Below, piece by piece: positions 2,988 to 54,546 of a DNA stretch of 64,000 bases. Position 1 is the first letter of the stretch. Each line of letters begins with the position of its first letter. A model generated the notes under the pieces. That model was given only the letters and a program-made list of their open reading frames with translations, was not told where the DNA came from and ran no database searches. The position numbers and the translations under genes are program-made. This stretch comes from Candidatus Poribacteria bacterium (GTDB taxonomy: Bacteria > Poribacteria > WGA-4E > WGA-3G), in contig OZ244048.1 of NCBI GenBank assembly GCA_965215265.1, forward strand, positions 2,141,743 through 2,205,742, given 5' to 3'.

Positions 2988-3194
2988 GGTTCATTAACAC
3001 AAACGAGCACTCTTTATATTTAGTAACGAAACCTTAACGCTTTCCGTTTACATAATATAGTGGTTTCCAACTATTTTTTAAGGTTTTTGTTGGAGTCGGA
3101 ACTGTTGTGTTCGCAGCGATGCCCAGAATTTTCAGGCAGTCGCTTGCAGCTCACATATCCGACTAAATTATTCCCAAGGAGGAAAAATAAAGTA

Positions 3195-6100
3195 ATGAAT
3201 GAGTTAAGACAATCAATTAATGTTTTACTTGTCGTGACCTGTATCTTGAGTAGTTTTGTACTCTACGGTTGTGGGGCGCAAAGCCTAGGTCCGCAAGAAC
3301 CGCTCTTACCAACTATTGAGGGTAGCTCTAAGTTCTCTGCCCGGTTCCAATTAGAAGAAGAACCGCAGTTCTTCTACGATCTATTTGGAAAAGAGCTGCT
3401 TGAAGGAAACGAAGTCTATAACTATCGCGAGCAAAAAGAATTCGACCAGAACGGTGAATTGATTGTAGGTTGGACTGGACAGCTCGATAGTGAAAGATTT
3501 TCCGCACAGCTCGACCGGACGGTATTAACAGAAGATAGTTTCCGAGGGAGATACACGGAATTTGCTATTGGTGATGATATGCGGTTCAAGCCTGCTACGT
3601 TGTTCCCAAACCGGTACATTCTCTATAAAACAGAGTTTGACGGCTTCCGTTGGGACATCTCTTTTTCGCAGGAGCGACATCTATTTACGTTGATTAACTC
3701 CCGTATCTCTAACCCAGCAAGATTAACTGATGCCGCAGCGAACCTCGCACCAACACTCGGCCGACGGAACGGGTTAAACGCGGATGCCGGCACTCGGCAT
3801 ATTGAAAACGCACGCTTGATCGGTTTCAGGGCACAGGGACTCTTAGGCGATATCTTCCGTGTTGGGTTCACCTATGTCAACCTACACAAAGAACACCCCG
3901 AACGCGTTGAGAACCCTCTCATGGGTACCGTCGCCAATACCCCACCTGAAGTCATCTCTGTTGTTTTTCGTGATGATTCTCCAGAAGATAATCACAACGT
4001 CGTTACCCAATTCTCTGGCTACGATGCTAACCTCCATGGAGATAACATCCAGGGCGGTGTCGGTGCTGCCTTCAAATCCATGAAAGCTACCGTCATAACA
4101 CAAGCATTAGAAGAACTCACAGCCGAAGAAATTGAAGAAGGTGTCGAACCGGCAACTCAGCCCGAACAGACGCAAACAATCGATATTTTTGTTGACGACA
4201 TCACGCCTATTGATGTCGGCGGACTTCCATCCGAAATTCGAGACTCCGTTGATGGTGAATGGAAAATCGTAGACGGTTTCAATAAAATGAAATATGATCT
4301 GGTCTTTGCTGACCACGATATTGAACCGCGCACCGTCAAATCCGTGGTCTTTGAGATGATAGTTGCAGGCGATTACAACATCGCTATCATCGGATTCAGT
4401 GACGCAAACAAAGCCGCTGAAGGCGCTGACCCCCTTGTCGAAGAGTGGATTAAAACCGAAGATGGACATATTGAAATGCCATACAGGGATGTCATTCAAG
4501 CACCCGGCAACTACGGACAATCTTCGGATTATGCCAGCAATCGGACAAGTCTTCTCGATAATCCAAGCGACTGGGAAGGAGAAGGAAGACCCCGGAAAGT
4601 CCAATATCGTTACGGCGCAGCACGCGCAGCACTTCTCTACGGACTTGATCTCGAAGGAACCATCGGGAATGTCTTCGTCCGAGCACATTATTCCATTAAC
4701 GGGAAATATAAGCAGTATCCTACTTTGCCCAAAGACAAAGTCGGTTTTAGTCGGCTCAAAACCACAATTATCACGGACAATGGTGAAGAAGAAACCGGCA
4801 TATCCATAGATCCGGCCACAGGACTGCCTCTAGACCGGAACGGCATACCGACCTACTCAGAAACCGAAGGCGAACGGTTTGAAGCAAGGTTGGGCGGAGA
4901 CGGAAGCGATGAAACCGGCGATGGCGAACTCGGAAGAGAAACTGCCTGGTTCGTACAGCTTAAATCACGATTCGGTAAACTCTACCTTGAAGGTGTTTGG
5001 TACCATATTGACCCAGGATATACCACCACCTATCTCAACTTCGGTTCAAACACCGATAGAGACCAGACATATTCACTGGAACGGACACCTGAATCACAAT
5101 CAGAAGAAGACCCCTGGGATGAAACCAATTACGCTCTCATTGAAGATGACGATGATGATGACGACTGGCCCGATGACATCGACTTTGATGGAGTACTACC
5201 ACGAGCCGATGACAGAGACCAGAACGGGATTTTGGACTTCCAAGAAGACTTCCTAATCTTTGATGCAGATCCGCCGGTCTTTACCGACCTGGTTGACTTG
5301 AACAACAACGGTACTATTGATTCCCTCGAAGATGACTTTGAACCACAATATGAATACGGAATTGACCGCGCCGGCTACCATGTCTTCGCCGAGTACGATC
5401 TACTCGACAACCTTTCTCTCAAAGTGGGGTGGCTCAACGAAGACGAAGTCTCCAGCCGACGACAGAATGATTCCAAATATTTGCACGTCACTTACCAACG
5501 TGACATTCCAGATTTTGGAACGATCCTCTTCCAAAACCGATTCGTCCGGGTTAACGACGATATTCCAGATTACACAATCACTCTCCGGGTCGGTGAATTG
5601 GACCCCGTTCAAATCTCTGACGAACTTGACTTCTACAACGCGCGGGTCAATACCACAACTCTTCAGTTCCTCTATACCGCTATACCCAACTTAACCCTTG
5701 AAGCAAAGTTTCTCGTGGTTTTGCAACATCAGTACGAACAAGATGAGGAAGGCGCTATCTTCCTCGATGTTGAGGGATCCGGTGATGAAAATGATCCGCT
5801 TAACGCAGATCAACGCGTTGACTTCATGGTACCTATCGAACAGGTTCGAGCCTCCGGCGAGAAACGGGAATATCCATTCTATCCTGACCACGGAATTAAC
5901 GCCCTTGATCCGGAAGATCCCGGACTTATCTATGACTCCGAAAACTGGAAGAAACGACGCTATCCAGAACGGGATATTCGCAACCAGCAGACTATTCTCA
6001 AAGCAAGATACGAAATCCCGCTCGGAGATCTACCCTTTGTTGATAAAATCGGTGAGGACTTAACCCTCACCCCCATGGTTAAATATATTTGGGATCGTGC

Positions 6101-6521
6101 CTTTGACCGCGGGGCCGAAGAAATCCCGGAATCGCTTAACCCGCGTTTGTTCGTCCCTACGGATGAAGAACCTGTTGGATACCTCCGATTCAATCGCCGA
6201 AGCCGGGAGGATGTCCTCGGTGTCCGCCTAGATTACCAGTTCACACAAAGAATGAACATCCTCGGCGGATTCCAGTACCGGAAATTTACCAACCGAGACG
6301 ATAACTTCAAAAACTATTTGGGGAACTTCCCGGAAGATGAAGACGTACCGATCCTCTTCCGCCCGGACCTGCGGACCCGAATCTTTGAAATCCAAGCCAT
6401 CAACCGCGGCGAATGGCTCGGTTTTAACATTGTTATCCTCGCAGGTTACAGACGAACCACCATCCTCCTTGAACATACAACCAGTAACACTACGTTTGTT
6501 CGAGCGATGATGGGTTTCTAA
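3195..6521 (+). CDS. giant (1108 aa) secreted, highly acidic outer-membrane-type beta-barrel protein with EF-hand/dockerin-like Ca-binding loops; family unknown
   Basis: RBS AAGGAGG 3176-3182 precedes ATG 3195. Signal/lipoprotein-like N-terminus (LLVVTCILSSFVLYGCGAQS). D7 run and DxNxNGxID / DxDxNGxxD loops (DLNNNGTID, DRDQNGILD). Alternating beta-strand pattern and a terminal aromatic (…AMMGF-stop) are typical of OMP barrels. No TonB box or plug motifs were seen. Confidence 0.55.
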   Translation: MNELRQSINVLLVVTCILSSFVLYGCGAQSLGPQEPLLPTIEGSSKFSARFQLEEEPQFFYDLFGKELLEGNEVYNYREQKEFDQNGELIVGWTGQLDSERFSAQLDRTVLTEDSFRGRYTEFAIGDDMRFKPATLFPNRYILYKTEFDGFRWDISFSQERHLFTLINSRISNPARLTDAAANLAPTLGRRNGLNADAGTRHIENARLIGFRAQGLLGDIFRVGFTYVNLHKEHPERVENPLMGTVANTPPEVISVVFRDDSPEDNHNVVTQFSGYDANLHGDNIQGGVGAAFKSMKATVITQALEELTAEEIEEGVEPATQPEQTQTIDIFVDDITPIDVGGLPSEIRDSVDGEWKIVDGFNKMKYDLVFADHDIEPRTVKSVVFEMIVAGDYNIAIIGFSDANKAAEGADPLVEEWIKTEDGHIEMPYRDVIQAPGNYGQSSDYASNRTSLLDNPSDWEGEGRPRKVQYRYGAARAALLYGLDLEGTIGNVFVRAHYSINGKYKQYPTLPKDKVGFSRLKTTIITDNGEEETGISIDPATGLPLDRNGIPTYSETEGERFEARLGGDGSDETGDGELGRETAWFVQLKSRFGKLYLEGVWYHIDPGYTTTYLNFGSNTDRDQTYSLERTPESQSEEDPWDETNYALIEDDDDDDDWPDDIDFDGVLPRADDRDQNGILDFQEDFLIFDADPPVFTDLVDLNNNGTIDSLEDDFEPQYEYGIDRAGYHVFAEYDLLDNLSLKVGWLNEDEVSSRRQNDSKYLHVTYQRDIPDFGTILFQNRFVRVNDDIPDYTITLRVGELDPVQISDELDFYNARVNTTTLQFLYTAIPNLTLEAKFLVVLQHQYEQDEEGAIFLDVEGSGDENDPLNADQRVDFMVPIEQVRASGEKREYPFYPDHGINALDPEDPGLIYDSENWKKRRYPERDIRNQQTILKARYEIPLGDLPFVDKIGEDLTLTPMVKYIWDRAFDRGAEEIPESLNPRLFVPTDEEPVGYLRFNRRSREDVLGVRLDYQFTQRMNILGGFQYRKFTNRDDNFKNYLGNFPEDEDVPILFRPDLRTRIFEIQAINRGEWLGFNIVILAGYRRTTILLEHTTSNTTFVRAMMGF

Positions 6522-39515: not shown

Positions 39516-40148
39516 ATGAAAAAACTCGAACGCGTTTTTTTGCTATCCGTAATACTCCTCACCGTATCTACAGTAGCGCTTGCAGCAACCGCAAATAATG
39601 ACGCTAACGCCCGTATTGACGACAAGAAACCTCAACAGGCACAACCGCTCGTCCCCGGTTATACTACTGATAAACCGCAAAGTGAGTCGACGACGTACCC
39701 GCTCTTTCGGACGCATGCACAGCGGTTTTATCCAGAATTGGACATCCAAAAAGCGACTCGGTTATCAATGTTCATGCCCGGCTTAGGACAAGCGTACGCC
39801 GGCAACTACAGCAAAGCCACCCTTTTTCTTGCATCGGAATTGGGAGCCTTCGCACTCGCAGGCTATAACATCGCTCGCGCACTGCATTACAACGCCCAGG
39901 ACGGTTTCGAAACAGGATTCCAAGATTCGCGAATCGGTGAATTCTTAACCGCCGACCAGGCACGCGTGCGTATGAGGGACCACACCCTCTTTGGGGGGCT
40001 TTTTCTCCTCACCGGCATCGGCATCCATGTATGGAATATCCTCGACGCACCCAAAACAGCAGATGCATATAATAATCGAAGATTTTCCCTGCAAATGCTA
40101 CAAACAGAGAGTGGGATACGTTCAATTATTTTTACGCAACGATTCTAA
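39516..40148 (+). CDS. hypothetical secreted protein
   Basis: Signal peptide MKKLERVFLLSVILLTVSTVALA. RBS AAGGAAG. Family unknown. Confidence 0.4.
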   Translation: MKKLERVFLLSVILLTVSTVALAATANNDANARIDDKKPQQAQPLVPGYTTDKPQSESTTYPLFRTHAQRFYPELDIQKATRLSMFMPGLGQAYAGNYSKATLFLASELGAFALAGYNIARALHYNAQDGFETGFQDSRIGEFLTADQARVRMRDHTLFGGLFLLTGIGIHVWNILDAPKTADAYNNRRFSLQMLQTESGIRSIIFTQRF

Positions 40149-40203
40149 TCGCACTTTTTCTTTACACGTGTAGTCGAAACACGCAGATTGGAGACTGTTA
40201 AAG

Positions 40204-41082
40204 ATGCCTTATCCTAAGCAATTAACACGGATTTTTTACGGCTTAATCGCCGCAAACCTAATTGTGACTATTGGCGCGCTCGCACAGCAAAAAACCGGAA
40301 CACGCGATGATGTTTTGACCAGTCTCGTTCAAACTGAAAACATCTCACCTGCACCCTTTCAGGTAGGCGAAAAATTCACTTACAAAGTCAAAATCCGCAG
40401 ACTACCCGCAGGAAAACGCACCGACCTGGTCGTCAAAAAAACACAATTGAACGGGAAAAACGTCTATCATATCCGATCCGAGGCAAAAACCCATTCTATT
40501 TTTAGACTTTACCACTTCCGCAATCAGCAGGAGACTTTTTTACAACGCAGCACACCGCTAACCGATATGGAAAAAGAGAGCACATCATCCACACAAAAAT
40601 GCAGCCGACTCCCCGGGCTCTCGCCAGTCCGATTCCAGAACCGGATCGAAGACCGGAAATATCGCGCAACCGTCACAGCAAATTTCGGCATAGACGACGC
40701 TATCGAATATCAGAAAACTTCGCGGTTAAATCCAAAATCACCACAAAAACGCGAAACAAAAGTACTCTCCATGCCCAACGGAACACAAGATGAACTCTCT
40801 ATGCTCTATTTTCTACGCAGCAAAAAACTCGCTATTGGGAAAACCTATTTTTTCCCGCTCTTGGCTCAGGGAAAGATCGTCAAGGTTAACATCACCGTCC
40901 AACGTAGAGAATCTCTCAAAACAAAGGTATTAGGGACGGTTAAAACCCTCGTACTGCACGCCTCAAACGGGTCACAACTCTGGTTGACAGACGACACACG
41001 ACGCATACCTGTCAAAATTGAAGCGCAAAGCAAGATTGGAAAAATGGTAGCCAATCTAGAAAAGGTAGAATTTGCAAAATAG
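40204..41082 (+). CDS. hypothetical secreted protein
   Basis: N-terminal signal-like helix. 292 aa. Family unknown. Confidence 0.4.
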   Translation: MPYPKQLTRIFYGLIAANLIVTIGALAQQKTGTRDDVLTSLVQTENISPAPFQVGEKFTYKVKIRRLPAGKRTDLVVKKTQLNGKNVYHIRSEAKTHSIFRLYHFRNQQETFLQRSTPLTDMEKESTSSTQKCSRLPGLSPVRFQNRIEDRKYRATVTANFGIDDAIEYQKTSRLNPKSPQKRETKVLSMPNGTQDELSMLYFLRSKKLAIGKTYFFPLLAQGKIVKVNITVQRRESLKTKVLGTVKTLVLHASNGSQLWLTDDTRRIPVKIEAQSKIGKMVANLEKVEFAK

Positions 41083-41142
41083 ACATCAGCAAAACTAACG
41101 AATAAATTGAAACCCAAAATAGCAACACTAAACCACAAACTA

Positions 41143-41240
41143 GGTATTCTTTATCTCTTCTTTCAGGAGAGATAAGTGGCGAGATAGGTATCTTTCTCTG
41201 TCCATGAGAGAAGATTACCTTTTACCTGCCACCCACTGGG
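41143..41240 (-). repeat. repeat family A, copy A4 (inverted relative to A1)
   Basis: taccttttacctgccacccactggg is the reverse complement of the A1 module cccagtaggtggcgagtaaaaggta. It also carries the ggtattctttatctc…gagagataag palindrome. Confidence 0.75.
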
Positions 41241-41268
41241 TTGAAACAGATCGGATAAGGGAAATTTT

Positions 41269-44200
41269 GTGATAGAACTTTTACGCCATACCCAGAATTA
41301 TCAAAAACTGAGCACTGCCCTCAAACACAGGGAAGAACTTACATGGCTCCGAGGCTTGCCCAATGCATCCACGGCATATCTCTTAGCAGTGCTCATTGAC
41401 GACTTTCCTAATAAATCATTCCTAATTGTACTCCCATCACAACAAGAAGCAGAACAAGTGCACGCGGAAATCCAGACTTATTGGACGTATAGTCTTCCTA
41501 ATTCTGATGCCATGGATACTAGCACGCAAACACAAAAACCTCTGCCTGCACACCCACACATGACACTTTTTCCCGGATGGCAATCACAACTTTTTGATGG
41601 CATCCCGCCATCCAAAAATACGGCTGTCCAGCGGATGCAAACGCTGCAAACGTTGCTGCAAGCACGCGAACGCAGCGTGGTTGTAACGAACGCCCGAACG
41701 TTAACTTACAAACTGCCACCCCGTTCAACATTGGCAACCGCTTTCTGCGAACTTCAACTCGGTGATGAAGCAGAACCAGACGATGTCATTGAAATGCTCC
41801 TCTGCGGCGGTTATCAACAGGTCGAATTGGTAGAGGTCAAAGGCGAATTCGCTTTCCGCGGGGACATCCTCGATGTCTATCCCTCCACTCTTGATACACC
41901 CGTCCGAATCGAATTTTTCGGCGATGAAGTTGAGGCCATCCGCGCCTTTGAACCCATGTCGCAGCGCTCAACTGAACAACTTGATGCCGTTACACTCCCA
42001 CCGATGCGCGAAATTCTCGCACGTCACATCTCTCTCGAACACTGGCACTTGCAAACAGACCAAATCATCCAAGAATATGCAACGCCGCAATTGATACACC
42101 GTATTAATGAACTCACACAACACTTAAAGGAAGCTACTTGCGAGCCGACAATAAGACGCACACACACAACCGACAACTTTACAGCAGCACCCCCGATGTT
42201 CGATTGGATAGAGGCGTTCTTGCCGCTCCTCTATCCCAAAACTGAAGCACTCATCGACTATCTCCCCGATGACACTTGTGTTGTACTGATAGAACCACAC
42301 TGGCAAAAACGTGAAGCAGCCCAAATGCTCGAGCAGATGCACGAACTGTTTCAGAAAAATTTGGCAGAATCAAAACTCATGGTGCCACCAGATAAAATGT
42401 TCGTTCCATTTGAGGAGCTCCAGACGCAATTAAAGCAATATCCGCTCCTCTGTGCATCCTTGGCACCCCCACGCGACATCTCAGCCTCAGAAAAGACACA
42501 GCTACACTTTGATATGAAACCGTTGGGACTGCCACGAGGCAGCTACCAGATGGTTATCGACCACATCAAAACCTGGACAGACGAAGGATATCAGGTTTAT
42601 GTATTCTGTGAAACGCCACAGCAGGCGAAGCGCGTCTCAGAAATTTTAGCCGAACGAGAAGCCGACTCAGAAATCAGCGAACACGCTATCCACGCTAACC
42701 ACACGGACTTCACAGCCAGCAATCCTTATCGTCTTAATCGACTTTTCGTCACAGTCGGAACAATTACGGAAGGCTTCCTTAATGAATCGCTAAACATCGT
42801 TGTCATCTCCGAAGAAGAGATATTCGGCAATCGGCATCAACGGCGAATACGGCCGAAACGACCCAAGGACGGCACACCGGTTCTCAGCCTAATTGACTTG
42901 AAGATAGGAGACCATGTCGTGCATGTCTCGCACGGCATCGCGGTTTATGGAGGCATCCAGCGCTTGGATTTTAACGGAAAATTACAAGATTTCCTAGTCC
43001 TCAAATATAGCAATGACGATGTCCTCTATGTGCCTAATTATCAAGTCGAGCTGGTTCAAAAATATATCAGCAGCAACGATGAAACTTACAAACCGCGGCT
43101 AGACCGACTAGGCGGACCCGCATGGCGCAACCGAAAAAACAGAGTAAAAGCATCAATCGAAAAAATGGCCGATGAACTCCTCGAACTTTACGCCGCACGC
43201 CAAGCCCGAAAAGGTTATAGCTTCCCAGACGAAGTACCCTGGCAGACTGAATTTGAGGCCCTGTTTCCTTATCAAGAAACCGATGATCAGTTCCAAGCAA
43301 TTGAAGATGTTAAAGCCGACATGGAGGCAGAACAGCCCATGGACCGGCTCATCTGTGGCGATGTCGGATACGGTAAAACTGAAGTCGCCTTGCGCGCAGC
43401 CTTTAAAGCCGTCATGGCCGAAAGGCAGGTCGCCGTACTCGTTCCAACAACCATTCTCGCACTCCAGCACTACGACACCTTTGAGAAACGGTTCAAGCCC
43501 TTTCCTGTTCACGTCGAAATGTTGAACCGTTTCCGAACGCCAAAGCAGATAAAGCAGGTCAAAGCAGGACTCGCAGATGGCACGGTCGATATTGTTATCG
43601 GAACGCACAGCCTCCTCGCCAAAACCGTCGAATTTAGCAACCTTGGCCTCTTAATTGTTGACGAAGAACACCGATTCGGCGTGAGACATAAAGAGAAAAT
43701 TAAGAAATTTAAAGAGACAATTGACGTACTCACGTTGACCGCAACACCAATTCCGCGCACTTTGCACATGTCGCTCGTCGGAATCCGAGATTTCAGCGTT
43801 ATCAACACACCACCCGCCAATCGACTGCCGATTCAAACCTACGTGATGCCGTACAACACGGATGTCATCCGAACCGCAATCCTCCAAGAATTAAGTCGCA
43901 GCGGTCAGGTCTTCTTTGTACATAATCGCGTCCGGAGCATCCAGAGCATTGCCAAAAGGTTGGAGCAATTGGTCCCAGAGGCACGCATCGCCGTCGCACA
44001 TGGACAAATGCCCGAACGTGAACTCGAAACGATTATGCTTGAGTTTGTTCGCCACAAGCACGACATACTTGTTTGTACCATGATTATTGAATCCGGACTC
44101 GATATCTCGAACGTAAACACTATCCTGATTAACCGGGCTGATGCACTCGGGTTAGCCCAACTCTATCAACTTCGCGGGCGCGTCGGACGCGCCGAGGCAC

Positions 44201-44901
44201 AGGCGTACGGTTATATGTTCTATCCAGAGAACCAAGTAATTACCGAAGGCGCGCAGAAAAGACTCCGCGTCATTGAAGAATTTACCGACCTCGGCTCCGG
44301 TTTTAAAATCGCACTCCGAGACCTAGAAATCCGTGGAACAGGCAATATCCTCGGCGCAGAACAGCACGGACACATCGTTACAATCGGCTATGAACTTTAC
44401 TGCAAACTCCTTGAAGAAGCCGTTCAGAAGTTGAAAGGCGAAACGGTCGAGGAGAATATTGAAACGCGCATCAACCTACCTATTGAAGCTTACTTGCCAG
44501 ACGACTACGTACCAGATAGCCGCCAAAAGGTGGCGGTTTACCGAAAAATTGCCGCCTTAAAAAACGAAGAAGCCTTACAAGAACTTCGCGCTGAACTAAA
44601 CGATCGATACGGTGCTATTCCTGAACCCGCTCAGATGCTTCTCGCTGTCGCCAGTCTCAAGCAGCTTTGTCAAAAACTCAGCATTACCGCAATCGTGGCG
44701 GGGAAAGCACAGATAAAAGTCACTTTTGACGAGCACAAACCACGAATTAACATCGAACGGCTACTTGAGGACATCCGCAAAGATGATAAACTTCGGCTCC
44801 TTCCGCCAGCACAACTTATGATTCGCATGCCGAACGGAACAACCGGAGAGAAAATGCTTACTGAATTACAACAAACCCTAACACAGTTTGTTAAAACATA
44901 G
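41269..44901 (+). CDS. mfd: transcription-repair coupling factor
   Basis: 1210 aa. DEEHRFGV DExH box and helicase motifs …LTLTATPIPRTL…, with UvrB-homology N-terminal and TRCF C-terminal domains. Confidence 0.9.
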   Translation: MIELLRHTQNYQKLSTALKHREELTWLRGLPNASTAYLLAVLIDDFPNKSFLIVLPSQQEAEQVHAEIQTYWTYSLPNSDAMDTSTQTQKPLPAHPHMTLFPGWQSQLFDGIPPSKNTAVQRMQTLQTLLQARERSVVVTNARTLTYKLPPRSTLATAFCELQLGDEAEPDDVIEMLLCGGYQQVELVEVKGEFAFRGDILDVYPSTLDTPVRIEFFGDEVEAIRAFEPMSQRSTEQLDAVTLPPMREILARHISLEHWHLQTDQIIQEYATPQLIHRINELTQHLKEATCEPTIRRTHTTDNFTAAPPMFDWIEAFLPLLYPKTEALIDYLPDDTCVVLIEPHWQKREAAQMLEQMHELFQKNLAESKLMVPPDKMFVPFEELQTQLKQYPLLCASLAPPRDISASEKTQLHFDMKPLGLPRGSYQMVIDHIKTWTDEGYQVYVFCETPQQAKRVSEILAEREADSEISEHAIHANHTDFTASNPYRLNRLFVTVGTITEGFLNESLNIVVISEEEIFGNRHQRRIRPKRPKDGTPVLSLIDLKIGDHVVHVSHGIAVYGGIQRLDFNGKLQDFLVLKYSNDDVLYVPNYQVELVQKYISSNDETYKPRLDRLGGPAWRNRKNRVKASIEKMADELLELYAARQARKGYSFPDEVPWQTEFEALFPYQETDDQFQAIEDVKADMEAEQPMDRLICGDVGYGKTEVALRAAFKAVMAERQVAVLVPTTILALQHYDTFEKRFKPFPVHVEMLNRFRTPKQIKQVKAGLADGTVDIVIGTHSLLAKTVEFSNLGLLIVDEEHRFGVRHKEKIKKFKETIDVLTLTATPIPRTLHMSLVGIRDFSVINTPPANRLPIQTYVMPYNTDVIRTAILQELSRSGQVFFVHNRVRSIQSIAKRLEQLVPEARIAVAHGQMPERELETIMLEFVRHKHDILVCTMIIESGLDISNVNTILINRADALGLAQLYQLRGRVGRAEAQAYGYMFYPENQVITEGAQKRLRVIEEFTDLGSGFKIALRDLEIRGTGNILGAEQHGHIVTIGYELYCKLLEEAVQKLKGETVEENIETRINLPIEAYLPDDYVPDSRQKVAVYRKIAALKNEEALQELRAELNDRYGAIPEPAQMLLAVASLKQLCQKLSITAIVAGKAQIKVTFDEHKPRINIERLLEDIRKDDKLRLLPPAQLMIRMPNGTTGEKMLTELQQTLTQFVKT

Positions 44902-45097: not shown

Positions 45098-45217
45098 TAT
45101 GTAGCCGCGAGCTGATGCTCGCGATTCTTAATCGGAGATTCGCAGGAAAAGGTATTGACCTAAAGGTTAATTAATACCTTACCTGCGAACTTGAACCACA
45201 AAAAAGGAACTATGAAT

Positions 45218-46258
45218 ATGAAAAAAACGATTACTATTTTGAGCATCGTCGCCATAACTTGCCTGTTGACATGGCGATTTGTTCAGTCCGATAGCCATGT
45301 TGGAATTGGGCCGGTGGAAGCCACAGAAGAGCATTCTGCAAACCAGACATCTACAGACGATGAGAATCTACAGATTGTGGCTGAATTTAAATGGAACGGC
45401 CAACGTCATCAAATTTCTCTCGCAGACTTGAACGCCGCAATAGCAGAACTGCCGGTTTACCGCCAGCAAAACTATGAAAACCGGGCGGACAAAGCCGAAT
45501 ACTTAGAAGAACTGATAGAGGAACGCCTCAAAATCCTACGTGCTACTGACGAAGGGTTTGATAAACTACCAGAACACCTCAAAAAGTTAGATGACTATAC
45601 CCATCAACTCATGTTGGAAAAACTGACCGAAATTGAAGTAGACCAGAAAATCGTCTACACCGATGACGAACTCATGGCACACTATGAGGAAAACATAAGC
45701 GAGTACATTGAAGACGCTAAAGTCCGAGCAACCTGCATCAGCCTCGACGATGAAGACCTGGCCAACGAAACGTTAGATGCAATTATAGCAGGCAAAGACA
45801 TCGTAGAAATGGCAAATGAACTCTTTCAGGCAGGCAAATTAGCCAACGGCCCCGGAACCAATCGCGATGAACCCGGGAACACATATCTCTTTACAAAGGC
45901 AGTCTCTCCACGCTGGGAGGAATTCATCAACGCCACATTCGCCCAAGAAATTGGCGAAATCACCGATACCGTCTTTGAGACCGAGGTCAACGAGCAAACA
46001 TTCTATCTTATTTTCAGAAAAGAGGAACACCACCCCGAACGCCAGATGGAATTCGACGAGGTTAAAGACGATATCATACGCGACATCGAACGCAACAAGA
46101 AGCAGCTGCGCATAAACGAGTGGTTAGAAGAAATTTATGAACGCGGGAAACTGAAGACCTACCCTGAGAATATTCCTACTCCCTCAGAACCAGCGGAAGA
46201 GGAAAATCAAACTCAAGAGCATCCCTCAGATACCAAACAAGGAGAAAACGAGAATTGA
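45218..46258 (+). CDS. SurA-like periplasmic chaperone paralog with a degenerate parvulin (PpiC) domain
   Basis: Signal peptide. SurA_N-like …AEFKWNGQRHQISLADLNAAIAELP…. The parvulin-like region lacks GGDLG. Confidence 0.55.
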   Translation: MKKTITILSIVAITCLLTWRFVQSDSHVGIGPVEATEEHSANQTSTDDENLQIVAEFKWNGQRHQISLADLNAAIAELPVYRQQNYENRADKAEYLEELIEERLKILRATDEGFDKLPEHLKKLDDYTHQLMLEKLTEIEVDQKIVYTDDELMAHYEENISEYIEDAKVRATCISLDDEDLANETLDAIIAGKDIVEMANELFQAGKLANGPGTNRDEPGNTYLFTKAVSPRWEEFINATFAQEIGEITDTVFETEVNEQTFYLIFRKEEHHPERQMEFDEVKDDIIRDIERNKKQLRINEWLEEIYERGKLKTYPENIPTPSEPAEEENQTQEHPSDTKQGENEN

Positions 46259-47307
46259 AAACTTTAATCACAACGTTAACACACGCACGTGCCGCCCAGA
46301 ACAGCCTCGCATATCTGAGCCTATTCGCGATTATTGTGACACTACCCCTATTCTATGCATGCGGCGACAAAGCCATCGGAGCAGACGGAACTGTCATTGC
46401 TGAATTTGAATGGAACGGGAAGCACAAAATCACACTCGAAGAGATGATGCAGGAAATTAGTGAGCTCCCTGAATACAAACAACGCAAATATCAGGACAAA
46501 GAGGGACTCGAAACCTACATGCTCCTCATGGCAGAGAGCCGGCTCATCCTCAACCTCGCACGCGATATGCAACTCCAAGAAGATCCCGAAATCCTCAAAA
46601 AGGTTCAGGACTATCTTCATGAGCTAATGGTAAAGAAAATTACCACCCAGGAAGTTGATGACAAACTCTCTTTGAGTGAAGCGGATTATATCAGCTATTA
46701 CGAGGCACATAAGCAAGACTACATCCGTCCAGCACAAGTCCGACTCCTATGTATCACCCTGCTCAACAAGGAGCGCGCTGAGGAAGTCTTCGCGGAAATC
46801 AACGCAGGCAAAGACATCGCTGAAGCTGCACAGGAACTCTCCGATAGAGGCGAGCTCGTCGGACCAGGCGCAAACCCCGCAGCACCCGGCGATACCGACT
46901 ACATTGGTAGAAGCGCCTTTCCATCAGGCACAGAACCTTTCTTGGATGCAGCATTCTCCGCTGAAATCGGAACATTCCACGACAAGATAGTTGAAGTTGA
47001 CGTGCAAGGACAGAAATACTACATGATCTTCCGAAAAGACGAAGCACGCGATGAATACCAAAAACCTTTTGAGGAAGAAGATGTACGCAAAAATGTCGTC
47101 CGAAAGGCTGAACGCGAAAAACGACAAGCACTCATGAAAGAGTGGATCGCCAGCCTCAGGGAACGCGCTGAAGTCATCACATACATTGACCGCATCCCTG
47201 AAGCACAAAACGAAGAAGCACCTGCCGAAACCGAACCTGAGGCACAACCCGAACAAACGCCTGAGGCACAACCCGAACAAACGCCTGAGGACAATCAACC
47301 TGAATAA
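46255..47307 (+). CDS. second SurA-like paralog (degenerate PpiC) with a C-terminal 24-bp x2 PEAQPEQT repeat
   Basis: …AEFEWNGKHKITLEEMMQEISELPEY… parallels the previous gene. 4-nt overlap implies an operon. Tandem repeat at 47239-47286. Confidence 0.55.
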   Translation: MKTLITTLTHARAAQNSLAYLSLFAIIVTLPLFYACGDKAIGADGTVIAEFEWNGKHKITLEEMMQEISELPEYKQRKYQDKEGLETYMLLMAESRLILNLARDMQLQEDPEILKKVQDYLHELMVKKITTQEVDDKLSLSEADYISYYEAHKQDYIRPAQVRLLCITLLNKERAEEVFAEINAGKDIAEAAQELSDRGELVGPGANPAAPGDTDYIGRSAFPSGTEPFLDAAFSAEIGTFHDKIVEVDVQGQKYYMIFRKDEARDEYQKPFEEEDVRKNVVRKAEREKRQALMKEWIASLRERAEVITYIDRIPEAQNEEAPAETEPEAQPEQTPEAQPEQTPEDNQPE

Positions 47308-47565: not shown

Positions 47566-48849
47566 ATGAAATGCAAAATCGGGGCTTATCTCTTGCTAAC
47601 TCTGATGTTTATCAGCACGGGGACAGCACGCACTTTTGACACCATCATCGCCTACGTCAACGATGATGTCATTACACAACGCGAACTTGATACCTTAGTC
47701 AAACAACGCGCCATGGAACTCCAACAGATGTACCGTTTCACTGAACGAGAGGCACTTCAGGAAGCCGAGCGGCAACGCCCAGAACTCCTTGATAGGCTCA
47801 TCCGCCAAATGCTCCTCCTTGAAGCAGCACTCACCTTGAAAGTCAACGTGACATCTGTAGAAGTTGAACAATACATCCAAGACTTTAAAAAGAGATACCA
47901 GATTAAGACAGATGAGGAACTTCAAAAACAGTTGAATCGCGAAGGACTCACCCTCATCGGGTTTCGGGAACAGACAGAACGCAACCTCAAAGCAGAGAAG
48001 TTAGTCATGGGCAGAATTATACCACGACTCCAGATTCGCGACAGTGAAGTCCAAAAATTTTTTGAAGAGAATCGGGACCAACTCCCAACTAAATCAGATA
48101 AGGTCCGATTCCGGCACATCTTTGTCGCTTTCAAACCGACGCAGACGGAACGTGACACCGCACTGCATAAAATTCACACCGCACGAAACGACATCGAAAA
48201 AGAACCAGCGCAGTTTGAACGCATCGCACGGCAAGAAATCGACGACTCCAACAACTCTCAAGTCGGCATACTCATAGAAGCTAGCCCCGAAGAGCTCAAA
48301 GAGTTCCCCGAAAACTTTCAAAATGCGCTAACCAATCTCAACGCTGGTGAATTTAGTGAACCCATCCAAGGAAACGAAGGGCTCTATCTCTTCAAAGTAG
48401 AAACAAAAACTGACACGCTCATCGCGTTTCGCTATCTCATCGTTCCGATTAAGTTGACTGAAGAAGCGAAACTTGAAGCACGGCTGCACGCCGCCAAAAT
48501 TTTTACAAAATTGGAGGAAGGACAACACTTCAACACCCTCGCCGCTGAACATTCCGACGATACGGAAACACGCGAAGACGGCGGCGACCTTGGCGTCCGC
48601 TCCCTGATTGAAATCAATCCAAAAACACGCAGAATCGTTGAAGCCCTCGAAGAAGGGACTTACAGTCAACCTTTTGAAACCGATTCCGGAATCCACATTT
48701 TTAAACTAGATGAACGAAATACACCCGAACTGAGCGAGGCCGAGAAAAAGCAGATTATCTCTATACTCCGCCAGCAGCGCTTTCAGGAAGAATGGGATGC
48801 ATATACCGATAGCCTCCTCGAAAACGCTTACGTCAAAATAAAACCGTAG
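47566..48849 (+). CDS. surA: periplasmic chaperone/peptidyl-prolyl isomerase SurA (two parvulin domains)
   Basis: Signal peptide. SurA_N (…IIAYVNDDVITQRELD…) and two PpiC-type domains. Confidence 0.75.
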   Translation: MKCKIGAYLLLTLMFISTGTARTFDTIIAYVNDDVITQRELDTLVKQRAMELQQMYRFTEREALQEAERQRPELLDRLIRQMLLLEAALTLKVNVTSVEVEQYIQDFKKRYQIKTDEELQKQLNREGLTLIGFREQTERNLKAEKLVMGRIIPRLQIRDSEVQKFFEENRDQLPTKSDKVRFRHIFVAFKPTQTERDTALHKIHTARNDIEKEPAQFERIARQEIDDSNNSQVGILIEASPEELKEFPENFQNALTNLNAGEFSEPIQGNEGLYLFKVETKTDTLIAFRYLIVPIKLTEEAKLEARLHAAKIFTKLEEGQHFNTLAAEHSDDTETREDGGDLGVRSLIEINPKTRRIVEALEEGTYSQPFETDSGIHIFKLDERNTPELSEAEKKQIISILRQQRFQEEWDAYTDSLLENAYVKIKP

Positions 48850-48938: not shown

Positions 48939-51900
48939 TTGAACTTTCAAGACGCGCCGGCAAGCGGCGAACGAAAACCTAAATTTTGGGACACTTGCGC
49001 AGCTGCCATAATCGCACTACTCGCAATCCCGTACCTCCACTCTCCGGCAGCACCCGCGCATCCCGCTCTTAACGCACGGCTCATCGCTCAAACACCCCCG
49101 CCGGAACAGACAGAGACACCCACTGAGCCCCAAGAAGAAACAGACGAAAAAGAAAATGCCCCTACATTCAATCCAGAGCAGGAGACACCTGACTCCGGGT
49201 TTGTCATCGGCGACGGAGACGAGATGGTGATGCACGAGAATCTCGTACAAATCCATGGAAACGCTCTCGTCAAATTTGGGGATATCACTTTGCGGGCAGA
49301 CCACGTCTGGGCCGATTTCACCGAAAACGTCAATTTAATCCGCGCATCCGGGAACGTACATCTCATCACCGGCGACGAGGAGACATTCTCTGATGAACTC
49401 GTCTTTAACCTCGAAACCAAAAAGGGCATCGCACGAAACGGCTTTACCTACAGCGACCCCTGGTACTTCGGCGGGAGTGAAATCTTTAAAATTGAAGATA
49501 AGACATCTTACGTCCGAAGTGCTAGCTTGACAACCTGTTCCCTCAAATATCCACACTACTATTTTAGCGTCTCACGCGTTATCATACGAGTCAACGACGA
49601 GCTCATCGCCAAAAATATCATACTCCGCATCGGAGGCTTCCCACTCTTCTATTTTCCAGCCATCCGACGCGATCTGCAGAAGGGAAAAATCGCTAAAATT
49701 ATTGTCAAAGTCGGAACCGATAGCTACCAAGGCCCTTATATCAGTATCATTCAACCTGTCGCACGCAAAAGACGCTACGATGGCGCACTCCTCTACGATA
49801 GAAGTGCACGCAGAGGACACGGCTTCGGGCTTGAAACAAAATATCGATTCAATGATACACAATTCCAAGAAATTTATATCCCTATTCCACCCGACCTAAC
49901 CGCCGCGCAACGCTCAAAATTGGAGGATAAAGCCAAAGAGATACGCGAACGGCTCGAAGGCAAATACAACCGATATTGGCTAAAGCAAATTTTCCTACCT
50001 TATGAAATTACGGATGCTGACTTCAAACGCGCGAAAGAGAACGCTGAAGAACTGCATAATCAACTTGTCCAAGAAAACGCAGATTTCGCACAACTCGCAC
50101 AGCAGCATTCTAGCCACGAAACTCGATACGAAGGGGGCGACTTAGGGTTCATCACATTCGGAGAACTGATTGAGGACACAGAAAAATCAACGCCTGCCTC
50201 TAAAAACACAGATAAAAATACCGAAACACCGCAAACCCAATCCGGATCAGAAGACGCAGCACAAACAGACGACGATACGCCGCAATCCGATGATAAACCA
50301 CCACAAACAGACGACGATGCACCGCAATCCGATGATGAACCACCACAAACAGACGACGATACGCCGCAATCCGATGATGAACCACCACAAACAGACGACG
50401 ATACGCCGCAATCCGGATCAGAAGACGCAGTGCAGCCCATTGGGACACCCAAACTCGACCCGATTTTAGAAACAGCAGCATTTCAACTAGAGGAAGGCCA
50501 AATCAGTCAGGTTTTAAAGACTGAATCCGCTTTTCACATCCTCAAAATCGAACGGGCCCTTGATGTATACGGAGAACGCGAAATACAGGTCCGACGGATT
50601 GATATTAACATTGAACCCAGCGACGAAACACGGCAGAAAATACGCGAAACCGCAAATCAAATTTATCAACGTGCACACGAAGGCGAACCCTTGGAAAAAC
50701 TTGCCGAAGAATTCGACGAAGCCGCTTTATCAGAAATCAACCAAGGCAAAGGACTCCCACTCAATCAAATGGAGTCCGGATGGCAATATTCTGTCAGAAG
50801 GTTAGAGAAGCCCGGCGAAATCATACAACGCCGGCCAGTTTCCGCACCAGAGGGGTTATACATCTTCCAATTAATTAAAAAAGAAGAGACTCCCTCCTTT
50901 GAACAACTCGCTCAAGAATTTGAATTGGAATGGGAAACCTTCCAACAAGAGGTCATGCGTTCAACCGAAGAAGAGAAACAGGAAAACGCAGAAAAAAACC
51001 AAACAGCCGCAGCTGCCGAACCTCTACAAGCTAAAAGTATAGCACCGCAACAAAAGAAAAAAACAGAAGAAAAAAACGGAACACCTACACAACTAGACGA
51101 GCAGCCGGACGCGGAGAGTGAGAACACAACCCAAGAAGAAGATGAAGAAGATGAAGAAGATGAAGCAGCAGCAGCAGAGCAGGGTGTCTATCGAAAACAC
51201 GGATTTCGCGGACAGTGGGAAGATCCCCGCATGGTCGCAGCCGAAGCACGCAGTTTGTACACCGGCGAATTCAGTCGTGTCGTAAAAACAAAAAAAGCGA
51301 TCCGCCTTATTAAGGTCGATCGAAAACGCACTTACCGCGGGGATTTCTACTTCTACGGCAAAGATGCATACTCCTTCGACAGGCAGAACGCAACTCGTAT
51401 CGGCAGAACATGGATATCCCGATGGGGACACACGCAAGCTATCTATACACCCTGGGATAATCGCCAAGAAGGACGCCGCCCTATCAACTTTACCGGACGC
51501 CTCGAATGGCGCGCCCGAAACTACAAAGAAGAACTCCGACTCCCCGGAGAATCCACACTCAAATCGTTTGGACTCCTTAACTACGGCTCCGCATTCACCA
51601 CATGGTCTACTCAAGATGTCGATGAAAACAATAATCTCAAATTCTCAATGGAAACTATCGGAGATTTCGCAGGACGACTCGAAATCCGACATATCTATGA
51701 TTTCACCCAACAAGGCACTACATCTTTACAAAAACTCCCACAACTCTCCTTAAACTTTTCACGGATGCGGTTTAGCCAACTGCCTCTCTTTCGAACCATT
51801 AACTCCGGGTTAGTCTACCTCTCCGAAAAAGCCCAAAGCGACAAACCTTTTCTCTCACTACTCTCTGTACCAACATTAGATAACACCAGCTTCGATCTGG

Positions 51901-53012
51901 ACATGGAATTCGGAAATTTCTTTAGACAAATCTATAAAGGCAAAAACGAGGAAGAGAGAGATGTCTTCCTGCAGACGCTTGACTTCGGTTTTGACCTGCG
52001 CAAACAGGCAACCTTACTCATTACCCCGCTGCGCGAATTGGTAACCAACATCAATCTGAATACAAACTTTATCTGGCACGACCGGGACCAGGACAAAAAC
52101 AGGAACATTATCCGCGGCGTTTATAGTTTCAACGGCTCCGCCACAAATACACTCTTCCGTGTCTACAATATTAGTTTCATCCCACGGGCACGTAAACTAC
52201 GGCACGAGATGCAATCATCACTCCGGTTTGATTACCAACCCCCTGTTGATCGGAACGATAATCTCTATCCCTTCGGCCCCAGCACCTATTTCTACGAACG
52301 GAAAAGGATCGTCTATAACTTCAACACGAACATCGAAATTAAGACACAGCGCAGCCAATCCCCACATCGTATCTTCCATTTTGACACCCGACTCACTGCC
52401 GACTTTACCAAATTCGACCCGCTAAACAGACGCAAATATGAACCGATCGAGAGTGATTTCACTATCATACCGCTCCCCAATCGCAGCCTGAACATGACCG
52501 TCCGACTCACCCACGACCCCAATCCACACCCAGAGGACGGTACCATGTTCAAAGTTGTCGGAATCCGTTCCAACATCCGATACACACGACAGAAGTGGAA
52601 TGTCAGCATCGGAAACTCCTTTAGCAAACGGCACACCGCCATTCGAGCATCACGCTCCATCACCGCCAATGGCAGATACCGATTTAACGAGAACCTCGAT
52701 TTCGATTTCAACCTCATCTTTTATCCGATCGACAGGGACTTCTACTCACAACGCATTAGTATCAATCGGAACTTACACGATTGGAACTTGCGCGTCTCTT
52801 GGAGCCGCATCGGCATTAAACGCGGGCCGCCACCCCATAACAACGTCCGACAAGATTTCACTTTTCAGATTAGCTTAATTCCAGAACCAGCAGTCTCAAT
52901 GGGCATCGGCTACGATGCCACTACCGAAACATGGGGACTCCGTACCTTACCCGCCGGCGCACCTTACAACGCTTTCGGGGTAGGAAATGCACTCGGACGT
53001 TCTTACTTCTAA
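48939..53012 (+). CDS. LptD/OstA-like outer-membrane protein (1357 aa) carrying an embedded parvulin (PpiC) domain split by acidic PQ[ST]DD tandem repeats
   Basis: RBS AGGAGGGGG plus TTG. N-terminal LptA/OstA-type beta-jellyroll (…FGDITLRADHVWADFTENVNLIRASGNVHLITGDEE…). PpiC signature …ADFAQLAQQHS….GGDLGFITFGEL – [repeat insert] – AAFQLEEGQISQVLKTESAFHILKI. Long C-terminal beta-rich region ending …GRSYF-stop. Confidence 0.55.
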   Translation: MNFQDAPASGERKPKFWDTCAAAIIALLAIPYLHSPAAPAHPALNARLIAQTPPPEQTETPTEPQEETDEKENAPTFNPEQETPDSGFVIGDGDEMVMHENLVQIHGNALVKFGDITLRADHVWADFTENVNLIRASGNVHLITGDEETFSDELVFNLETKKGIARNGFTYSDPWYFGGSEIFKIEDKTSYVRSASLTTCSLKYPHYYFSVSRVIIRVNDELIAKNIILRIGGFPLFYFPAIRRDLQKGKIAKIIVKVGTDSYQGPYISIIQPVARKRRYDGALLYDRSARRGHGFGLETKYRFNDTQFQEIYIPIPPDLTAAQRSKLEDKAKEIRERLEGKYNRYWLKQIFLPYEITDADFKRAKENAEELHNQLVQENADFAQLAQQHSSHETRYEGGDLGFITFGELIEDTEKSTPASKNTDKNTETPQTQSGSEDAAQTDDDTPQSDDKPPQTDDDAPQSDDEPPQTDDDTPQSDDEPPQTDDDTPQSGSEDAVQPIGTPKLDPILETAAFQLEEGQISQVLKTESAFHILKIERALDVYGEREIQVRRIDINIEPSDETRQKIRETANQIYQRAHEGEPLEKLAEEFDEAALSEINQGKGLPLNQMESGWQYSVRRLEKPGEIIQRRPVSAPEGLYIFQLIKKEETPSFEQLAQEFELEWETFQQEVMRSTEEEKQENAEKNQTAAAAEPLQAKSIAPQQKKKTEEKNGTPTQLDEQPDAESENTTQEEDEEDEEDEAAAAEQGVYRKHGFRGQWEDPRMVAAEARSLYTGEFSRVVKTKKAIRLIKVDRKRTYRGDFYFYGKDAYSFDRQNATRIGRTWISRWGHTQAIYTPWDNRQEGRRPINFTGRLEWRARNYKEELRLPGESTLKSFGLLNYGSAFTTWSTQDVDENNNLKFSMETIGDFAGRLEIRHIYDFTQQGTTSLQKLPQLSLNFSRMRFSQLPLFRTINSGLVYLSEKAQSDKPFLSLLSVPTLDNTSFDLDMEFGNFFRQIYKGKNEEERDVFLQTLDFGFDLRKQATLLITPLRELVTNINLNTNFIWHDRDQDKNRNIIRGVYSFNGSATNTLFRVYNISFIPRARKLRHEMQSSLRFDYQPPVDRNDNLYPFGPSTYFYERKRIVYNFNTNIEIKTQRSQSPHRIFHFDTRLTADFTKFDPLNRRKYEPIESDFTIIPLPNRSLNMTVRLTHDPNPHPEDGTMFKVVGIRSNIRYTRQKWNVSIGNSFSKRHTAIRASRSITANGRYRFNENLDFDFNLIFYPIDRDFYSQRISINRNLHDWNLRVSWSRIGIKRGPPPHNNVRQDFTFQISLIPEPAVSMGIGYDATTETWGLRTLPAGAPYNAFGVGNALGRSYF
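50268..50417 (+). repeat. in-frame 42-bp tandem repeat x ~3.5 (DDD[AT]PQSDD[EK]PPQT) inside the LptD-like CDS
   Basis: Units at 50268, 50310, 50352 and a partial one at 50394. It is flanked by a longer direct repeat (…caatccggatcagaagacgcag…). A 9-bp x3 EED repeat lies at ~51131. Confidence 0.85.
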
Positions 53013-53820: not shown

Positions 53821-54546
53821 TTAGTCTGCTTCAACATCCACAAGTAGCTCACGTCCATTCAACGGTTGCACCGGACGACTATTGCCCTGCATAATCGTTT
53901 CAAATGCCAAAATTTGCGATTCAGACATTTCAATAGGTGTCGTTATTATGAACCATTTGACCCCTTCCGAACACGGCGGAGTCGTTAACGAACCCTCGTA
54001 ACGATAGGTATGCCTCGTGCTTGGCAACAGTTCGTCGGCATTGACGGTAACACTCTCAATGCTGCGCATCTCGCCCGATACGGATGGCAAATTGCTCCAG
54101 ATTGAAGCAAACGTCGGATTATCACTTCCACGTTCTATTAACACACCAACCACAGCCAACGTTCCATCCTCACTTTGGTGAACGTAGTGCATCTCCATGT
54201 CAAACGCTCTACCGGCTACTGTATGTTCACCGGGGGCGTGGAAGTGGAATTGTTGCAATTCATACCTTGTGCCATCAACCTCAATCCAACTCCCTTCATT
54301 GTATGCAACTTGAATAGTATGTCCAGTATTGCGAATGTTCAAAACCGTTGGCTGGTATTTGAAAGTCATCGCTGGAAGTTCAACAGCTATCGGGTTCACC
54401 AAATCAATCGGCGATTGGTGTATCCCCACAGCACAAATGGCATACTCCGGATTTAATTGCCCCCAGATGTTTGGACCATTTTCTTCTGTATAACCCCACT
54501 CTACTGTGTGGGATTCACTAACTAATTCTTCGTGTATGATATCCAT
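53821..54546 (-). CDS. alpha-class carbonic anhydrase (apparently without a signal peptide)
   Basis: QSPIDL, HFHAPGEHTV…MEMHYVH and the SLTTPPCSEGVKWF zinc-ligand/active-site blocks. Confidence 0.85.
   Translation of the reverse strand: MDIIHEELVSESHTVEWGYTEENGPNIWGQLNPEYAICAVGIHQSPIDLVNPIAVELPAMTFKYQPTVLNIRNTGHTIQVAYNEGSWIEVDGTRYELQQFHFHAPGEHTVAGRAFDMEMHYVHQSEDGTLAVVGVLIERGSDNPTFASIWSNLPSVSGEMRSIESVTVNADELLPSTRHTYRYEGSLTTPPCSEGVKWFIITTPIEMSESQILAFETIMQGNSRPVQPLNGRELLVDVEAD

Follow-up and report, generated by a model that had tools for sequence, protein, structure and literature searches.

How an outer-membrane translocon might come to carry the folding domains of a periplasmic chaperone is the question raised by a gene at positions 48939..53012 of a 64,000-nucleotide stretch of Candidatus Poribacteria DNA (contig OZ244048.1), the whole of which is referred to here as the window. 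Poribacteria are a phylum of sponge symbionts. LptD, the lipopolysaccharide (LPS) translocon, is an essential protein and a target of antibiotics, and no substrate of the machinery that folds outer-membrane proteins is known to be harder; its maturation in E. coli requires SurA, Skp and LptE as well as a rearrangement of disulfides. An earlier note, made from the sequence of the window alone, had described the product of this gene as an LptD/OstA-like protein in which a single parvulin domain, split by an acidic tandem repeat, lies between an N-terminal jellyroll and a C-terminal barrel. We found that the protein is the LptD homolog of Poribacteria, with the periplasmic β-jellyroll that is standard for LptD and, in the outer membrane, a β-barrel of very large size. 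However, about 480 amino acids (aa) comprising two complete parvulins and one degenerate parvulin are inserted into it, and the hhalign comparison and the sequence alignment placed this array not between the jellyroll and the barrel but C-terminal to the fourth or fifth strand of the barrel (β4/β5).

The gene lies on the forward (+) strand, as do all the features within it that are described below. It was called as a single open reading frame (ORF) with a TTG start, encoding 1357 aa. The product is identical, residue for residue, to the public protein P0188, located on a 4.83-Mb contig, and its named homologs belong to Candidatus Poribacteria. The public names of these proteins ('peptidylprolyl isomerase', 'parvulin-like peptidyl-prolyl isomerase' or 'hypothetical protein') hide the LptD of the phylum, and the annotation is corrected here.

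Pfam and NCBIfam searches with the single sequence gave OstA/LptD scores that were below threshold or borderline. The LptD_N model reached 14.2 bits, below its cutoff of 20.4, and the LptD_2 model was borderline (21.5-22.9 bits, with a cutoff of 22.5); among the relatives LptD_2 was clear, 17 of 38 members matching it with a best E-value of 8.6e-11. When the PDB was searched with the family profile, only parvulins and no solved LptD were recovered, and the link to LptD was therefore made through intermediate canonical sequences and structure prediction. The profile of the C-terminal 562 aa, run against 1.84 billion representative proteins, produced 42 matches. The strong ones were parvulin-containing relatives; in those of the weak ones that were scanned (P0143-P0146 and P0151, with E-values of 1e-9 to 2e-5), Pfam recognised LptD_2, LptD and LptD_N. 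A profile built from 12 of the weak matches, which are canonical LptDs, finds solved LptD with an E-value of 1.7e-33. The hhalign comparison of the poribacterial family with these 12 canonical LptDs gave a probability of 100% (E 5.6e-57) over 646 columns, and the E-value improved to 3-5e-65 when the parvulin array was excised. Moreover, the window protein with its array excised matched the canonical LptD hidden Markov model (HMM) in a single continuous match of 244 bits.

Structure prediction led to the same assignment. The protein minus its two disordered segments was modelled with AlphaFold2 (AF2), with a mean predicted local distance difference test score (pLDDT) of 77.6. The top 31 Foldseek matches of this model were all solved LptD structures, the best being 4q35_A (E 7.4e-19), and the LptD-LptE complexes 4q35, 5iv9 and 8h1r were the best structural matches of the protein. 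About 27-30 strand elements were assigned by DSSP, of which the first strands and the last two were of low confidence. Thus, the OstA/LptA-type jellyroll proposed in the earlier note was recovered by profile and structure comparison, and its large C-terminal barrel was borne out by the profile-profile match and by Foldseek; the homology of both parts to LptD is confirmed. The protein is presumably the sole LptD of the cell.

The order of the LptD parts follows E. coli LptD (Imp/OstA) and the three complexes named above, in which an OstA/LptA-type jellyroll precedes a very large β-barrel. The first part of the gene (48939..49193) encodes a basic and then hydrophobic (aa ~12-33) segment resembling a signal peptide, followed by a variable acidic linker rich in Pro, Glu and Thr (aa 45-85; net charge -9 by composition). 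This putative signal peptide was recognised from the sequence and the family alignment. The jellyroll (aa ~88-245; 49200..49673) contains an invariant TTC motif. The barrel strands ahead of the insertion (aa ~250-318; 49686..49892) were aligned by hhalign and MAFFT to β1-β4/β5 of E. coli K-12 LptD, and the AF2 confidence in this stretch is partly low (pLDDT 38-57). The rest of the barrel (aa 798-1357; 51330..53009) follows the insertion and ends with GRSYF. What sets the poribacterial protein apart from the known LptDs is the array of ~480 aa inserted after β4/β5 and a sequence similarity to Pfam LptD/LptD_2 that is found only at threshold. An observation of its own concerns a barrel connection of 12 residues between two strands, TPWDNRQEGRRP (aa 837-848; 51447-51482), which hardly varies within Poribacteria and is without an equivalent in E. 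coli, a turn of a single residue being found there; a contact of this connection with the jellyroll or the parvulin array is conceivable. An enlarged periplasmic part was also encountered in another LptD lineage: the members of the P0151 cluster (1051 aa), which are canonical LptD_2 relatives, have ~280 additional residues between LptD_N/OstA_2 and the barrel, and these contain no parvulins.

Individual residues of E. coli LptD were only partly retained. P273, which is invariant within the poribacterial family, aligns with E. coli P246, whereas no Pro aligns with P231. In E. coli LptD these prolines weaken the β1/β26 lateral gate, P231 lying on β1 and P246 on β2 (PMC6164715); by the alignment, the β2 proline would thus be kept and that of β1 would be missing. 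The only Cys of the mature protein, C200 (49536-49538) in the jellyroll, corresponds to E. coli C173 by alignment, and the same one-Cys state was observed in 114 of 125 homologs. At the barrel site of E. coli C724/C725 the protein has the Asp of the segment LHDWN (aa 1279-1283, ~52776-52790), in place of SCC or of HCW, the latter being that of canonical LptD_2 proteins. With one Cys in the mature protein and Asp where the barrel partners would be, the disulfides that link the two domains of E. coli LptD (C31-C724 and C173-C725) cannot form. Such disulfides are characteristic of proteobacterial LptD and may not be a defining trait of the family as a whole.

The presence of a parvulin domain, as claimed in the earlier note, was supported by Pfam Rotamase and by AF2; its being a single domain was not. 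According to two AF2 models, one of the protein described above and the other of the native segment aa 318-830 with the acidic insert included, the insertion consists of a helix (aa 322-339), parvulin 1, parvulin 2, a second helix (aa 654-671), an acidic linker and half of parvulin 3. Parvulin 1 (aa ~345-545; 49971..50573) is broken by the acidic insert, and the Pfam Rotamase model PF00639 matches it with an E-value of 1.5e-24 in two stretches, aa 358-426 and about 504-544, which flank the repeat. Parvulin 2 (aa ~546-650; 50574..50888) reached 22.7 bits with Pfam Rotamase when its segment was isolated, and AF2 predicted a parvulin-type secondary structure for it (pLDDT 85-96). The linker (aa 675-748; 50961..51182) is of low complexity and strongly acidic (net charge -17), is predicted with a pLDDT of 34-43 and differs in length among homologs. 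Tandem Repeats Finder (TRF) detected micro-repeats of 13 bp and 9 bp in it, namely 2.5 copies of a 13-bp unit at 51049-51081 and 3.4 copies of GAAGAAGAT at 51135-51165, and the closest relative differs in the linker too (EEDEA-AAA vs EEDEEDEAE). Only the C-terminal half of the degenerate parvulin 3 is present (aa 749-797; 51183..51329), recognised from the AF2 secondary structure and the consensus 'GGDxGFRGRWE...', and its final strand continues directly as a barrel strand. In free-living relatives parvulin 3 is complete, and up to four parvulins are found; three or four stretches matching Rotamase were counted in P0123, P0129 and P0141. In addition, a short relative of 856-865 aa from hot-spring Candidatus Poribacteria (P0147/P0176) combines two such stretches with a barrel-profile match limited to the first 143 positions; it may represent a truncated or differently built form of the fusion.

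The closest counterpart of the array is SurA. A collinear blastp match joins it to aa 168-418 of the SurA encoded next to it (E 1e-7), and between parvulin 1 and SurA P2 the identity is 35%. The best folds retrieved with Foldseek for the array were the SurA-like peptidyl-prolyl isomerase (PPIase) of Bacteroides fragilis, 8hm4 (E 3.6e-9), and SurA, 1m5y (E 1e-3), and parvulin 1 was superposed on SurA P1 at 2.0 Å. With both of these proteins the array shares tandem parvulins followed by a helix. The differences are that it is covalently embedded in a membrane barrel, adds a third, degenerate parvulin, and has disordered acidic insertions within and between its domains. It also has no SurA_N and thus no N/C chaperone core: Pfam found no SurA_N domain in the 1357-aa protein, and one is present in the adjacent gene (47566-48849). 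The array therefore resembles the P1-P2-C-helix part of SurA without the chaperone core.

When compared with parvulin PPIases in general (PpiC/Par10, Pin1, PrsA), parvulin 1 has the Pfam Rotamase match and the β-α3-β-α-β2 order of secondary structure, and it conserves the GGDLGF motif, the hydrophobic pocket residues and the second His (H533). It differs in the 94-aa disordered acidic segment of its β2-α4 loop and, as judged from the alignment, in its active site: an invariant Gln350 would stand in place of the first catalytic His, and at the Cys/Asp position this strain would have Ser and most homologs Asp. By our alignment, the tetrad H59, C113, S154 and H157 of Pin1 would correspond to Gln350, Ser392, Ser530 and His533 of the window protein.

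A frameshift or a mis-assembly joining a surA-like gene to lptD had been named in the earlier note as the finding that could undo its reading. The chance of such an artefact is close to nil. The same uninterrupted ORF is present in the public contig and in the independent assembly of L081, the nearest relative; it is also found in more than 120 homolog clusters and in 146 species genomes, and a separate, intact surA lies upstream. The more than 120 clusters are full-length homologs with 60-71% identity to the window protein, the 146 relatives were found among species-representative genomes, and a diverged free-living clade has about 31-33% identity. The parvulin array is invariably present in the family. 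For the gene order, 80 loci were kept, all titled either Poribacteria metagenome-assembled genomes (MAGs) or 'uncultured bacterium' MAGs. Both the fusion and the gene order mfd-ppi-ppi-surA-lptD are conserved across Poribacteria. Among the 8 million full-text papers and preprints searched we found no description of an LptD with parvulin domains, nor of LptD in Poribacteria. Thus, in agreement with what had been claimed from the sequence, this phylum-wide LptD architecture appears undescribed, and the tandem repeat is an embellishment at the level of the strain.

The acidic insert itself (aa 410-503; 50166..50447) occupies the β2-α4 loop of parvulin 1, between GGDLGF...GE and PKLDP, and has a net charge of -25. 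In the native-segment model aa 414-498 had a pLDDT of 32-44 and no secondary structure, and parvulin 1 had a pLDDT of 92-96 on either side. The insert is thus predicted to be disordered and to be tolerated by the parvulin fold, as the earlier reading of a folded domain split by a repeat had proposed. The 42-bp tandem repeat within it (50260..50415) consists of 3.7 copies that encode DDD[TA]PQSDD[KE]PPQT in frame; TRF reported 95% matches, no indels and a score of 291, and each unit falls into two 21-bp halves that are related to one another. The array is flanked by the sequence CAATCCGGATCAGAAGACGCAG, which encodes QSGSEDA and occurs as an exact direct repeat of 22 nt at 50238-50259 and 50409-50430, and this indicates that the 42-bp array is nested within a larger duplication of 171 bp. 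L081 (98-99% DNA identity) has exactly one 42-bp unit fewer, which means that the copy number varies between close strains, a point that the earlier note had proposed to check.

The insert is real; however, it is not a feature of the family. Among the 115 homologs in which the β2-α4 loop could be measured, the loop has 11 aa in 103 and 64-99 aa in 12. These 12 long-loop homologs form the clade of this strain, and the 14-aa repeat was found only in this strain and in the relative nearest to it. The idea that the acidic repeat is a functional element conserved in the family was accordingly rejected. The insert is best explained as a lineage-specific disordered loop expansion, prone to replication slippage, on a surface loop of parvulin 1 beside its proline pocket, and a specific role in catalysis is improbable. 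Two more acidic low-complexity stretches occur in the same protein (aa 45-85 and 675-748). Acidic tails were also noticed in the two PPIase genes upstream of surA: the 3' end of the second gene (46255-47307) contains a 24-bp tandem repeat at 47235-47294, with 2.5 copies encoding PEAQPEQT units of an acidic C-terminal tail, and the first likewise ends in an acidic Pro/Glu/Gln/Thr tail. Given these tails, such segments look like a general habit of the periplasmic proteins of this lineage and not like a specific device. The repeat is of minor interest, as a clean case of a slippage-prone disordered expansion tolerated inside a folded domain.

The side of the membrane on which the array resides depends on the strand that precedes it. 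In the alignment made through canonical intermediates, the insertion follows the equivalents of E. coli β1-β4/β5 and replaces E. coli residues 294-309. In the AF2 model a continuous strand of 23 residues (aa 293-315, pLDDT 86-90) enters the array, a continuous strand of 25 residues (aa 787-811, pLDDT about 91) leaves it, and where E. coli has its β4-β5 turn no hairpin is seen. These strands would fit a β4 that extends into the periplasm and supplies one of the two strands of a stalk, the true β5 then being DFYFYGKDAYSF; in our reading the DFYFYGKDAYSF segment resembles the canonical β5 motif (F.F.G...YSF vs Y.L.G...GSY). On the strength of this model we consider the array probably periplasmic. 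Some observations weigh against it. The window segment QFQEIYIPIPP aligns with E. coli β5, which places the array in the β5-β6 connection and, by strand parity, in the extracellular loop L3. Spliced constructs with β5 before or after the array score alike with the canonical LptD HMM (244.9 vs 244.5 bits), hhalign on the spliced family alignments does not discriminate between them either (535 vs 537), and the predicted template modelling score (pTM) of the AF2 model is only 0.54, the placement of the array relative to the barrel not being fixed by the model. If the array were indeed in L3, it would be exported through the nascent 26-strand barrel and act outside the cell, e.g., on host matrix or surface proteins, and the hypervariable acidic segments would be surface-exposed variable regions. 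Five strand-equivalents precede the insertion in the alignment with E. coli K-12 LptD, and the prolines P231 and P246, which mark β1 and β2 (PMC6164715), make the β5-β6 connection extracellular by parity; furthermore, hypervariability of the kind that inserts and linkers show among close relatives is common in surface loops. However, the continuous strands into and out of the array and the match of DFYFYGKDAYSF to the canonical β5 motif point to the periplasmic stalk, and the periplasmic PPIases encoded upstream have acidic repeat tails too, so that such tails do not imply exposure. To our knowledge, there is also no precedent for the export of a folded array of ~480-570 aa inside an internal loop. 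We therefore regard display at the surface as unlikely.

The best explanation overall, to which we give slightly better than even credence, is that the protein is an LptD with a tethered periplasmic folding or docking array. The array would hang in the periplasm from a two-stranded β-stalk, a few strands away from the β1/β26 gate and the jellyroll, and could hold or recognise unfolded barrel segments of the exceptionally SurA-dependent LptD during their delivery to the β-barrel assembly machinery (BAM); alternatively, its role could be to organise partners where the translocon opens into the periplasm. Most economically, Poribacteria would have tethered a SurA-derived parvulin array to LptD, with a separate SurA encoded next door. 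Of the outer-membrane proteins of E. coli, LptD depends on SurA the most ('principally dependent on SurA'), and the chaperone activity of SurA resides in its N/C core, the parvulins being largely dispensable and modulating activity and specificity (PMC3747590). The array is without this core, which counts against a folding role, and so the fusion of a chaperone to its own substrate, as the earlier note had it, is something that we infer and have not found as such. The absence of the E. coli inter-domain disulfide partner from the mature protein, and a catalytic tetrad in parvulin 1 that appears incomplete (Gln350 and Ser392) when aligned with Pin1, weigh on the same side. Another role for the array would be that of LptE. 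It, or one of its domains, could be a cis-encoded plug and assembly factor that fills or caps the lumen of the barrel in a phylum without the LptE lipoprotein. LptE is required in E. coli both for the assembly of LptD and for plugging it (PMC11784454; PMC6164715), and outer-membrane lipoproteins such as LptE are far less widespread than barrel proteins (PMC11784454); no lptE-like gene was detected within the conserved operon, and no member of the family is without the array. However, no similarity to the LptE fold was found among the top structure matches, and canonical LptD_2-type proteins in other non-proteobacterial phyla do without such an insert, which makes this role quite unlikely. That the array is not a passive periplasmic appendage, and is either displayed on the surface in L3 or a cis-encoded LptE substitute that plugs and assembles the barrel, is thus a possibility to be held tentatively; if true, the whole phylum would have fixed a novel mode of constructing or employing the LptD translocon. 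A further alternative takes the protein for a diverged paralog that no longer exports LPS, its barrel anchoring the chaperone array for general outer-membrane protein biogenesis and a separate canonical LptD carrying out the export. The very diverged sequence, the threshold Pfam scores, the failure of the sequence search to recover a solved LptD and the lost disulfide partner would be compatible with this, and non-LPS roles have been proposed for LptD homologs in Borrelia (PMC11784454). Nevertheless, the jellyroll and the barrel are complete and very highly conserved across the phylum, and the insert-excised protein is collinear with canonical LptD over ~640 columns. A canonical poribacterial LptD was absent among the named matches outside the family, a weak point as most matches are unnamed. 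We consider the paralog very unlikely.

With SurA-type parvulins built into the barrel, the disulfide partner lost and no LptE evident in the operon, the poribacterial protein amounts to a natural experiment on LptD assembly. It bears on what the parvulin domains of SurA contribute to LptD, on how LptD is assembled and plugged outside Proteobacteria, and on the size of a folded insertion that a BAM-assembled barrel can tolerate.

The neighbourhood of the gene was examined in the window and in the 80 loci. Directly upstream of lptD lies surA (47566..48849, +), which encodes SurA_N and two parvulin domains according to Pfam and NCBIfam. It is preceded by two parvulin-family genes (45191..47307, +) that overlap by 4 bp; they are PrsA/PpiD-like, match Rotamase_2 only and encode acidic C-terminal tails rich in Pro, Glu, Gln and Thr. 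Hence, of the three surA-like genes reported upstream in the earlier note, all belong to the parvulin family but only the third is a true SurA. The adjacency of surA and lptD that it had pointed out holds widely: surA is upstream of the lptD homolog in 77 of 80 related loci, and it is also directly upstream in a 49%-identical relative. The two further parvulin-family genes are kept in 74 of the 80 loci, and the order DUF3108-mfd-ppi-ppi-surA-lptD in 73-77 of them, showing that the conserved block reaches upstream past the chaperone genes. In E. coli lptD and surA are adjacent as well, but there lptD precedes surA, whereas in Poribacteria surA precedes lptD. A scan of the operon found no promoters beyond shuffled expectation and no convincing terminator, and no other lpt genes are present within the 64-kb window. 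Genes for DUF5683 and DUF3108 proteins were located upstream of mfd, at 39516-44901.

Elsewhere in the window, a long ORF of 1153 aa (3060-6521, +) has no Pfam match at E <= 1e-4. Directly downstream of lptD, on the opposite strand (53821-54546, -), a eukaryotic-type (alpha) carbonic anhydrase is encoded; not detected in the other 80 loci, it is common to this strain and L081, its 98%-identical relative.

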